A program made the translations under genes and the position numbers. Positions 16,149 to 17,241 of a DNA stretch of 64,000 bases are shown one piece after another; positions within the stretch are counted from its first letter, which is position 1, and each line of letters starts with the position of its first letter. The stretch covers positions 56,236 through 120,235 of the forward strand of contig JBHIAH010000003.1 of the NCBI GenBank assembly GCA_046758505.1. Direction: 5' to 3'. Source of the stretch: Candidatus Methylomirabilales bacterium (GTDB lineage: Bacteria; Methylomirabilota; Methylomirabilia; Methylomirabilales; CSP1-5). A model generated the notes under the pieces. The model saw only the letters and a program-made list of their open reading frames with translations, was not told the DNA's origin and ran no database searches.

Positions 16149-16259
16149 CTGGTTCGTGTCCATGGTTCGTGTGGTTCGGAGCAGATGAGCACACATGAGG
16201 GTCAGGTCTTGCAATCACACAAGCACACATGAGAGACACATGAGGGTCAGAGACAGATG

Positions 16260-17162
16260 AGGGTCAGGTCTTGCAATCACACATGCTTCCTCTTCCCCGT
16301 CTCTTGCACCCTGAGCTTCCGACTCACTGTAGCATAGTGCACCCCCAGATGTTCCGCAATCTCTCGCAGTCGATACCCGTACTCCCGATAGGCCGCTCCT
16401 ATAGCCCTCTCGCCCCGTTGGCGAAAGAGCTGCGCTAAGGTTGGCCTCACCGGTCTCCACTGCACCCGGGGGATCTCCGGCATCCTCGCCCCCCTCTTGG
16501 TGTGTCGCTGGATAAAGGTCGCACTCCCCAGATATATCTGCCCCTGCAGTTGCTGCCACGGTTGCCGGCCGAGCCCCTCGTGAACAAAGGCCCGATACCG
16601 GGTTTGGGCACCGCTCCTCCGTTGCCCAAACTGGCCCAGGACCCACGCGACCGTCAAAAATCCAGGCGCCGATGCTAACCCCGCGGTGGCTCGATAACTG
16701 CTCCACTTCCATGCGGCCACACTCCGCTTTGCCCCTGCCCGCACGGGATTCAACACGACATAGCGACACAGCTCCAACAAGTGCGCTTGCTTTTCTACGA
16801 CTATTGCCTTATAGCGCCCTTGAAACAGATGGCCCACCCGGCTGTGCCTCCGATTGAAGGCCTGGGTGTAGACCCCGTTGAGCTGGCGCATCCCCCGAGA
16901 CAGGGTGGGCTTCAGGGTTTCGATCAGCAGGTGGTAGTGATTATCCATGAGGCAATAGGCATGGCAGAGCCACTCGTAGCGAGCGATCACCTCGCCAAGA
17001 ATGTCGAGAAATGCCTGGCGATCCGTGGCGTCCCGGAAGATGTTTTGCCGGGCGTTCCCGCGGGCCGTGAGGTGATAGACTGCGCTCGGATATTCAATGC
17101 GGAGGGGGCGACTCATGCCAGGAGGGTACCAGGGGATCTGTAGGATTGCAAGACCTGACCCT
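16260..17162 (-). mobile_element. Inverted-repeat-bounded Y1/HUH (RAYT-like) element 1
   Basis: Perfect 19-bp inverted repeat AGGGTCAGGTCTTGCAATC at 16260-16278 and 17144-17162; extra copy at 16198-16216. Confidence 0.8.
16277..17116 (-). CDS. REP-associated tyrosine transposase-like protein (Y1_Tnp) with C-terminal HTH
   Basis: YHLTARGN, HuH motif MDNHYHLL, HLFQGRY, YVVLNPVRAG, WSSY; C-terminal LREIAEHLGVHYATVSR. Confidence 0.9.
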   Translation of the reverse strand: MSRPLRIEYPSAVYHLTARGNARQNIFRDATDRQAFLDILGEVIARYEWLCHAYCLMDNHYHLLIETLKPTLSRGMRQLNGVYTQAFNRRHSRVGHLFQGRYKAIVVEKQAHLLELCRYVVLNPVRAGAKRSVAAWKWSSYRATAGLASAPGFLTVAWVLGQFGQRRSGAQTRYRAFVHEGLGRQPWQQLQGQIYLGSATFIQRHTKRGARMPEIPRVQWRPVRPTLAQLFRQRGERAIGAAYREYGYRLREIAEHLGVHYATVSRKLRVQETGKRKHV

Positions 17163-17241
17163 AAACCTTCTCTAAACCTTCTAAACCTTTGACCCTAAAC
17201 CTTCCTAAACCTTCGCCTTCGCGGGGCAGGCGCGGAGGGCG

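Follow-up and report, generated by a model that had tools for sequence, protein, structure and literature searches.

The elements named TIRYTs or TIRtrons (Di Nocera 2013, PMC3733652) correspond to subclass 2.1 of the TnpA-Y1 proteins (Quentin 2018, PMC6006769) and to group 1 of the RAYTs (Bertels 2017, PMC5581495). Subclass 2.1 occurs in approximately 15% of species and is recognized by the motifs NH[YFV]H, FQ and Y---NP together with a C-terminal HTH_23, HTH_28 or Bac_DnaA_C domain (PMC6006769), and the inverted repeats (TIRs) of TIRYTs follow the consensus GGGG[AT][CG]A[CG] (PMC3733652). The accessible text of these three papers gives no element boundary, cut site, end duplication or mechanism; the words 'duplication', 'target site' and 'direct repeat' are absent from that of PMC3733652, and 'tandem' from that of PMC6006769 and PMC5581495. 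Within the scope of our literature search there was no report of TIRYT end duplications or of a cut site; Fig. 9 and the supplements of PMC3733652, which lie outside that scope, could show such grouped repeats.

For the sister family TnpA-REP, a nick-extend-rejoin scheme was proposed in 2012 for BIME amplification (PMC3333891, Fig. 7B). As laid out in the accessible parts of PMC3333891 and PMC8266576, a nick is followed by extension of the 3'-OH and its attack on the tyrosine-linked 5' end, adding one unit; recognition is by hairpins, cleavage falls between C and T, the attacking base has to be C and whole BIME units are copied. HUH enzymes in general form a 5'-phosphotyrosine at a chosen site and free a 3'-OH able to prime or attack (PMC8266576). 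The IS200/IS605 family has the Y1 HUH fold, cuts its left end 5' of the binding site with the tyrosine left on the element and makes no target duplication, using subterminal hairpins, guide-defined tetranucleotide sites and one active strand. IS91/ISCR elements, Helitrons and Replitrons move by HUH-primed copy-out with variable run-through and one-ended events that take neighbouring DNA. These belong to other Rep clades and have distinct origin and terminus ends or direct repeats (PMC10288648, accessible part). A TnpA of subclass 2.1 beside prochlorosin genes, for which local indel diversification was proposed, is surrounded by many 3' gene fragments; no inverted repeats were found there, and causality was later called undecided (10.1101/2020.03.09.984088).

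The window analysed here is a stretch of 64,000 nt (G000:C3:56236-120235). Positions at an end are numbered from the first G of GGGTCA or GGGACG, which is 0, with negative values outside. We call tandem copies at an end a stutter, and the outer position at which a copy begins its restart. Element 1 and its surroundings comprise the following features.

16132..16178, + strand: TIRYT-type solo end (GTGTCAGG) belonging to a different subtype; it is cut off at +16, and imperfect copies of flank plus tip come after it
16179..16260, + strand: left stutter of element 1, copies of flank plus truncated repeat
16250..16260, + strand: outer arm of the left end of element 1; the last copy restarts at -10/-11 (16251/16250) and ends at +6
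16261..16278, + strand: TIR core of element 1 on the gene-3' side, inner intact copy (position 0 = 16261)
16277..17116, - strand: Y1/HUH transposase gene of element 1, 279 aa with a C-terminal helix-turn-helix
17144..17161, - strand: TIR core of element 1 on the promoter side (position 0 = 17161)
17162..17220, - strand: right stutter of element 1, with copy ends at 0 and +5 and the final restart at -10

The element 1 protein has intact NHYH (residues 59-62), FQ and YVVLNP (119-124) motifs and matches the Y1_Tnp profile at 1.5e-14. The Y1 core motifs of subclass 2.1 are present in both window proteins, and the catalytic motifs are intact and invariant across 34 aligned proteins. The C-terminal HTH of the subclass is also present, though its profile matches (HTH_38/HTH_23 for element 1; E 4e-4 for HTH_23 and 9e-6 for Bac_DnaA_C) fall below the gathering cut-off. 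The AlphaFold model of the element 1 protein has a mean pLDDT of 66 with three confident helices at 227-277. Sequence searches of solved structures gave 0 matches, which required a fold search; this placed E. coli TnpA-REP (4ER8) first, followed by ISDra2 and IS608. The second element and a further solo end lie downstream in the window.

35682..35696, + strand: left repeat core of element 2, GGGACG subtype, without stutter
35710..36717, - strand: Y1/HUH gene of element 2, 335 aa with NHVH, FQ, YIHLNP and a Bac_DnaA_C-like tail
36760..36789, - strand: right repeat core of element 2 (36760-36774) with one 8-nt duplication outside it
63927..63970, + strand: solo end with core at 63946 and one 11-nt duplication (restart -10, end 0, 2-nt mismatch)

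The TIRs are 18-nt inverted repeats in element 1 and 15 nt in element 2, fitting the TIRYT consensus at 7/8 (AGGGTCAG) and 6/8 (GGGGACGT) positions, respectively. Elements 1 and 2 fit TnpA-Y1 subclass 2.1 as delimited in the accessible text of PMC6006769 and are probably TIRYTs (PMC3733652), with which they share NH[YV]H, Y---NP, an HTH_23 or Bac_DnaA_C tail, TIRs, the lack of REP hairpins and low identity between copies. The flanking REP/BIME hairpins of REPtrons (RAYT groups 2/3) are absent at the window elements, and none of four 57-nt end regions folded better than its 200 shuffles. The subterminal hairpins, Y---Q motif and short core with or without TnpB that mark IS200/IS605 were likewise not found. 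A first-pass annotation of this DNA had pointed to a Y1 subclass with an HTH for which no mechanism was described, which agrees with the literature. The shorter members of the family (~230 aa) have repeats and stutters too. Only 5 of 72,556 plasmid records carry the family, with no multi-copy set among them.

At element 1, repeat cores lie at 16199 (outer copy), 16244 (GGGTCA only), 16261 (inner) and 17161 (minus strand). Copies in the left stutter end at 0, +22 (outer copy 16199-16221), 0 and +5, and on the right CTAAACCTT occurs at 17161, 17172, 17181, 17195 and 17205, with TGACC at 17156 and 17190. The C/G alternation of the left units is not explained by plain copying. CCATTTTT is found at 36773 and 36781 beside element 2, and CGCGCCGAG at 63927 and 63938 beside the solo end, which runs on into contig C13 with no Y1 gene behind it; both cases are weak alone, since their 9-nt matches fall short of the 10-nt threshold applied below. 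The stutter coordinates of the first-pass annotation were all exact on re-location, as was its count of four stuttered ends out of five, the exception being the left end of element 2 (35682). The G000 genome contains about a dozen such Y1 genes. Patterns for the ends match it 68 times and cover several subtypes, many of these ends being solo or nested. Clustered solo ends of several subtypes, nested or back-to-back, occur at C6:18309-25952, C9:21584-25951, C107:660-1824 and C1:383-426; the genes among them are short and, judged by eye from their N-termini, have a toxin-antitoxin, HEPN/nucleotidyltransferase or NYN-type look.

We scored stutters as the longest exact repeat covering the three bases just outside the tip, with a threshold of at least 10 nt. 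By this measure 34 of 120 ends were stuttered among relatives of element 1 and 22 of 122 among those of element 2, after ends with no core motif near the gene or with less than 75 nt of flank had been dropped (120/160 and 122/160 kept). Pooled over all sets, 86 of 348 ends were stuttered compared with 3/348 mirror positions 25 nt inside, which is the enrichment outside versus inside the tip that the first-pass annotation had asked for, and with 3/314 positions 200 nt outside, which ties the stutters to the repeat ends. The Fisher p of ~1e-24 overstates this because ends are related; kinship among ends inflates the significance and leaves the contrast unaffected. In the G000 genome, 13 of 50 ends were stuttered against 16 of 5000 random positions, the 50 ends coming from motif patterns that may include a few chance matches. 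A held-out set from another class, from which 20 gene matches without an inverted repeat scoring 11 and 8 ends without a core were excluded, gave 17/56 stuttered ends against 1/56 inside, and its ends on megabase contigs gave 5/26 against 0/26 controls. Shuffled flanks yielded 2/2400. Viral contigs with the same 15-mer and no Y1 gene in the locus yielded 0/121, a mixed control in which some matches look like real solo ends. Stutters are family-wide and affect approximately a quarter of the ends examined.

Four runs of one vent study (X1-X4) contain the G000 strain, and we compared their contigs rather than reads; a fifth run (X5, small share) held diverged pieces only and was excluded. The island contigs of the four runs, described below, are 4341-4428 nt long with 0 substitutions and differ only at the tips (by 11, 30 and 62 nt). 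A 62-nt left block (16195-16256) is present in X1 and X2 and absent from X3 and X4, a difference that either gain or loss between 27-nt repeats could explain. An 11-nt right unit, itself canonical (-10 to 0), is present in X3 and absent from X2 and X4, so that X4 lacks both. The right end is mixed in X1, where a minority contig has a further 30-nt duplication (restart -10, end +18) at depth 8.7 compared with ~32. The genomes G011 and G008, from different species, share an orthologous element upstream of comM. One of its ends has no added unit in G011 and two in G008, where the second copy runs over the junction left by the first; at the far end of this element G011 has a 13-nt stutter where G008 has ~35 nt of flank. 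These differences show, at the level of sequence, that stutters grow in place, and in a natural population the elements appear to be active at present.

Most loci are metagenome assemblies, and the window's pairing of both long alleles is not present in one contig of any of the four runs, so the window may be a co-assembly mosaic of run alleles. That the stutters themselves are sequencing or assembly artefacts, or chance, is nevertheless largely refuted, and we give this reading almost no weight. Each allele occurs in its own contig of independent runs, the shared repeats of 11 and 27 nt are shorter than the 31-letter words, the ends on megabase contigs are stuttered as above, and a canonical stutter (restart -9, end +4) is present in NZ_LR134433.1, a closed isolate record.

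Two observations on assemblies can be added. One X2 contig (depth 3.5, one mismatch) joins 20884-20913 to 16188, which is -11 of the outer left repeat, and so spans to a point 4.7 kb downstream; it could be a circle or long-duplication junction or a chimera, and is a hint only. For many close homologues the longest recorded contig measures 900-1400 nt, roughly the length of an element. Assemblies that break off at both ends would give this pattern, and so would low coverage.

Each added unit consists of flank plus a truncated repeat. Of 98 events, 80 have their outer start between -7 and -14, as do 16 of the 18 events ending at +8 or beyond, which are free of threshold bias; for copies ending at -1/0, the 8-nt threshold itself pushes the restart to -7 or beyond. 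Nine long duplications of 109-771 nt have a gap of 7-12 nt in seven cases, the other two containing a nested short event or filler, and long tandem duplications have inner ends from +158 to +762. The first-pass annotation had the units begin at the CCC/GGG tip and placed a nick there. The units instead span the junction of flank and repeat, with restarts 7-14 nt outside the GGG core. A nick at the tip is not supported, as the ends vary on the tip side and are constant on the outer one. We also gave up our own first model, a fixed nick inside the repeat with outward extension, as it is the outer end that stays constant over lengths of 8-771 nt. The suggestion of iterative copying did stand up, and the sequences display it directly, together with enrichment at the ends, a fixed restart zone, a variable inner end and the involvement of both ends.

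HUH enzymes form a 5'-phosphotyrosine at a chosen site, therefore the constant end of the duplications is likely the tyrosine-linked end. We propose, as the probable if far from certain explanation, that stutters are inward tandem re-copies of an element's own end made by enzymatic nicking, polymerase extension and re-joining. The element's Y1/HUH enzyme would nick the inward-pointing strand ~10 nt (7-14) outside the repeat, at a position set by the distance from the bound repeat. Host polymerase would extend the freed 3'-OH into the element, and the enzyme would re-join the displaced tyrosine-linked 5' end to the extended strand, leaving a tandem copy. A protein-capped flap would escape 5' nucleases. 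One round would give a fixed start and a variable end without homology, and repeated rounds would give mosaics. We infer the enzyme as catalyst, the strand that is cut and the distance-set cut site from these sequence patterns. For element 1, the predicted nicks lie at 16251/16250 on the + strand, the restart point of the last left copy, and at 17171 on the - strand, the last restart of the right stutter. A stutter would then be the aborted start of copy-out transposition, and a tyrosine-linked end with a distant 3'-OH would produce insertion without target duplication, nested ends and one-ended rearrangements.

The inner ends of the 98 events peak at -1/0 (25) and +5 (21), followed by a tail to +61; both peaks are in register between the GGGTCA and GGGACG subtypes. 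Under nick-extend-rejoin, ends at -1/0, +5 and +15 to +20 would be stalls or second cuts, and those at +5 are sharp enough for an enzyme cut, which counts against this reading. The peaks would be expected if the enzyme cut twice, either as a staggered break (-10 with -1 or +5) that is filled and re-joined or with a second cut on the new strand as in the BIME model, and microhomology would then be unnecessary. We think this quite unlikely, since for one and the same restart the ends range from +10 to +762, which is not expected of fixed second cuts, and the base at +5 differs between subtypes.

Among 58 clean events, 27 had zero microhomology (null 54%), and the mean of 1.24 compared with a null of 0.73 is a small excess. 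No clear base preference was seen among the 27 zero-microhomology restarts: all four bases are found on both sides, TC is commonest (6/27) and CT, if the restart is read as the cut, occurs at 2/27. Filler or mismatched bases mark the junction in 38 of 98 events. The excess, which lies in 2-5 nt microhomologies, and the fillers could be taken as signs of slippage without catalysis, in which a repeat-bound protein blocks the replisome and the nascent strand slips back; solo ends without an adjacent gene stutter too, as this would allow. However, such a roadblock predicts a fixed stop and a homology-chosen restart, the reverse of the data, and the events without microhomology, the lengths of up to 771 nt and a restart zone that matches the transposition boundary (see below) make it very improbable. 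The same microhomology counts and lengths speak against the slippage or re-priming that the first-pass annotation had put forward.

Truncated repeats followed by a foreign 6-14-nt arm also occur. These, the nesting of one subtype behind another and the C/G mosaic of element 1 are accounted for if the enzyme makes the same cut ~10 nt outside, but the attacking 3'-OH comes from the nascent strand of a fork or from a sister copy (local hopping), with no displacement synthesis at the nick. A fixed start and variable end would again be expected, and IS200/IS605 elements are known to use single strands at forks (PMC3333891, accessible part). Against this stand the ends that have an upstream repeat prefix, most of which (47/85) copy their own flank, and the behaviour of the two ends. 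Left and right ends, which lie on opposite strands, stutter at similar rates (45/159 and 28/136; p 0.14 for the difference), therefore there is no sign of a lagging-strand rule; both ends are stuttered in 9 of 121 elements, and the correlation between the ends of one element is not significant (p 0.32). We regard a fork or sister 3'-OH as unlikely.

Target-site duplication was rejected as a source of the stutters, in keeping with the first-pass annotation: with nine tip definitions, no left/right direct repeat occurred above random pairing in 97 elements (46 and 51). This and the Y1 fold also separate the family from DDE insertion sequences. Left and right flanks show a weak likeness in inverted register within -10 to -1 only.

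None of 59 stuttered ends lies inside an ORF compared with 35 of 183 unstuttered ends, a comparison in which a stutter can itself break an ORF. The location of stutters outside ORFs makes a by-product of transposition more likely than the dedicated sequence-iterating function suggested by the first-pass annotation, and protein diversification was rejected as a role on the same count. In contrast to the prochlorosin case, with which the loci share many 3' gene fragments, the site of editing can be defined here, and it falls outside ORFs.

The nick-extend-rejoin reading resembles the BIME model in its nick, 3'-OH extension and attack on the tyrosine-linked 5' end, in tandem copy numbers that vary between strains and in the closest fold, 4ER8 (PMC3333891, PMC8266576, accessible parts). 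It differs in having no hairpin, the low count of CT restarts (provided that the restart is the cut), a distance-defined start, run-off of any length and a mobile gene-bearing element. Compared with IS200/IS605, the window family has inverted repeats that are symmetric, is affected at both ends and on both strands and shows no site sequence, and compared with IS91/ISCR and Helitrons its symmetric repeats both behave as origins, as the stutter rates of the two ends indicate.

Moved copies allowed comparison of the restart zone with the element boundary. In G034, a genome with long contigs, two 99.3% identical copies at different loci part from their hosts just outside the core, sharing exactly 11 nt on the left and 10 nt on the right (outer copy) and diverging beyond. 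This pair belongs to a sister subgroup of ~225 aa that is 36% identical to element 1 and shorter than the HTH-bearing forms. One copy abuts the inside of a repeated sequence whose intact copy supplies the target; against it, the left junction lies at -10/-11 with one shared base and no filler. Judged by its ends, the repeated target sequence resembles a group II intron. Across 37 close pairs whose sites are unrelated, and which are not independent, identity is 0.6-0.9 at -1 to -7, ~0.4 at -8 to -11 and near background past -12. Other pairs speak against a fixed boundary: the G073 copies (95-99% identical) share ~5 nt outside the core, and in G142 the exact match there between two short copies, 99.8% identical, covers 0-1 nt. 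Such variation in the shared arms would follow if the cut wandered and the arms were repeatedly trimmed and replaced; each move would add or remove host bases, so that outer arms would come to differ between elements. As judged from these alignments, the restart zone coincides with the boundary of transposed copies. In the nick-extend-rejoin reading, the true element end would lie ~10 nt (7-14) outside the GGG core and the published consensus.

The G142 short copies (L414, L415) are 508 bp long, lie in a single-contig genome and have both repeat ends, each with its own stutters; they are likely non-autonomous derivatives. In G034, a 2-kb group-II-intron-like repeat (L360:3574-5585, L361:1244-3255) begins ~14 nt inside TIRYT ends (GGGACAGATTTAT...), suggesting that TIRYT ends are intron targets.

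Element 1 is nested directly behind the solo end at 16132..16178, and an element on contig C35 is bounded by the same subtype as this solo end. Element 1 also opens a 4430-bp island, with TPR and FRG genes after it, between two direct repeats.

15929..16148, + strand: copy 1 of the 220-bp direct repeat, spanning 23 nt at the start of comM/yifB, the region upstream of it and 17 nt belonging to the solo end
17242..20352, - strand: island cargo, a TPR-protein gene (17242-18534) and an FRG-domain gene (18544-20352)
20579..20798, + strand: copy 2 of the 220-bp direct repeat, in which the solo end at 20782 continues intact

The 220-bp repeats are perfect, copy 1 has twice the depth of its neighbours in the runs, and all four runs have C at 16107 where both window copies have T. 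The inner end of the repeat is at +16 of the other subtype's solo end, a typical stutter end; the duplication starts at -203, outside the restart rule. An empty site for the island was considered and rejected: where the runs show another sequence after position 16148, it is this genome's second direct repeat and no empty allele.

TIRYT ends lie upstream of comM/yifB in G000, G008, G009, G011 and G012 (window 14416-16200; L083, L084, L089, L306), and this is a recurrent site for different TIRYT elements and solo ends in five genomes of the genus. None was seen there in the examined stretches of G001-G005, which are too diverged for a base-exact junction. G009 and G012 have one solo end in common with unrelated DNA outside it.

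A broader reading, which we hold tentatively and at somewhat less than an even chance, is that TIRYTs are separate, symmetric double-origin HUH transposons. They would cut any sequence approximately one helical turn outside the bound repeat, cap 5' ends with tyrosine on both sides, copy out by displacement and join to any 3'-OH. If this is true, one reaction would give stutters, kilobase tandem duplications, nested ends and the capture of neighbouring genes, of which the 4.4-kb TPR/FRG island would be an example. The enzyme would act in trans on dozens of solo ends per genome, as a natural site-anchored duplicator and strand joiner.

TIRYTs are widespread, with homologues at E<=1e-40 in 64 of 300 genomes sampled from one other class (the unpublished G060 counts in this tally alone, and G186 was unscored), yet our literature search found them named in only two works. 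The family is known, the reaction scheme has been proposed for the sister family, and the testable footprint at the ends is new; no earlier report of nick-extend-rejoin for TIRYTs was found in the accessible literature. As a fossil footprint, stutters would place the likely cut, revise the element boundary, show present-day activity and predict an exact in vitro result, and they would support, from within genomes, the step put forward in 2012 for REP/BIME amplification. If true, a small enzyme able to nick at a set distance with no sequence preference and to join any 3' base would be unusual among HUH enzymes and might serve as a tool.

The window also contains other repeats. Tandem 7-mers, GTTCATG-like or TTCGCAA-like and unrelated to TIRYT ends, lie at 10782-10806, 13571-13595, 56782-56806 and 9795-9823 with 25341-25369. 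A 135-nt inverted repeat (7873-8007 and 13578-13712) is 91% complementary with its arms 5570 nt apart. Finally, 40400-45500 holds repeats of 30-79 nt at codon-multiple spacing, resembling an RHS/YD-repeat or NHL-repeat gene.
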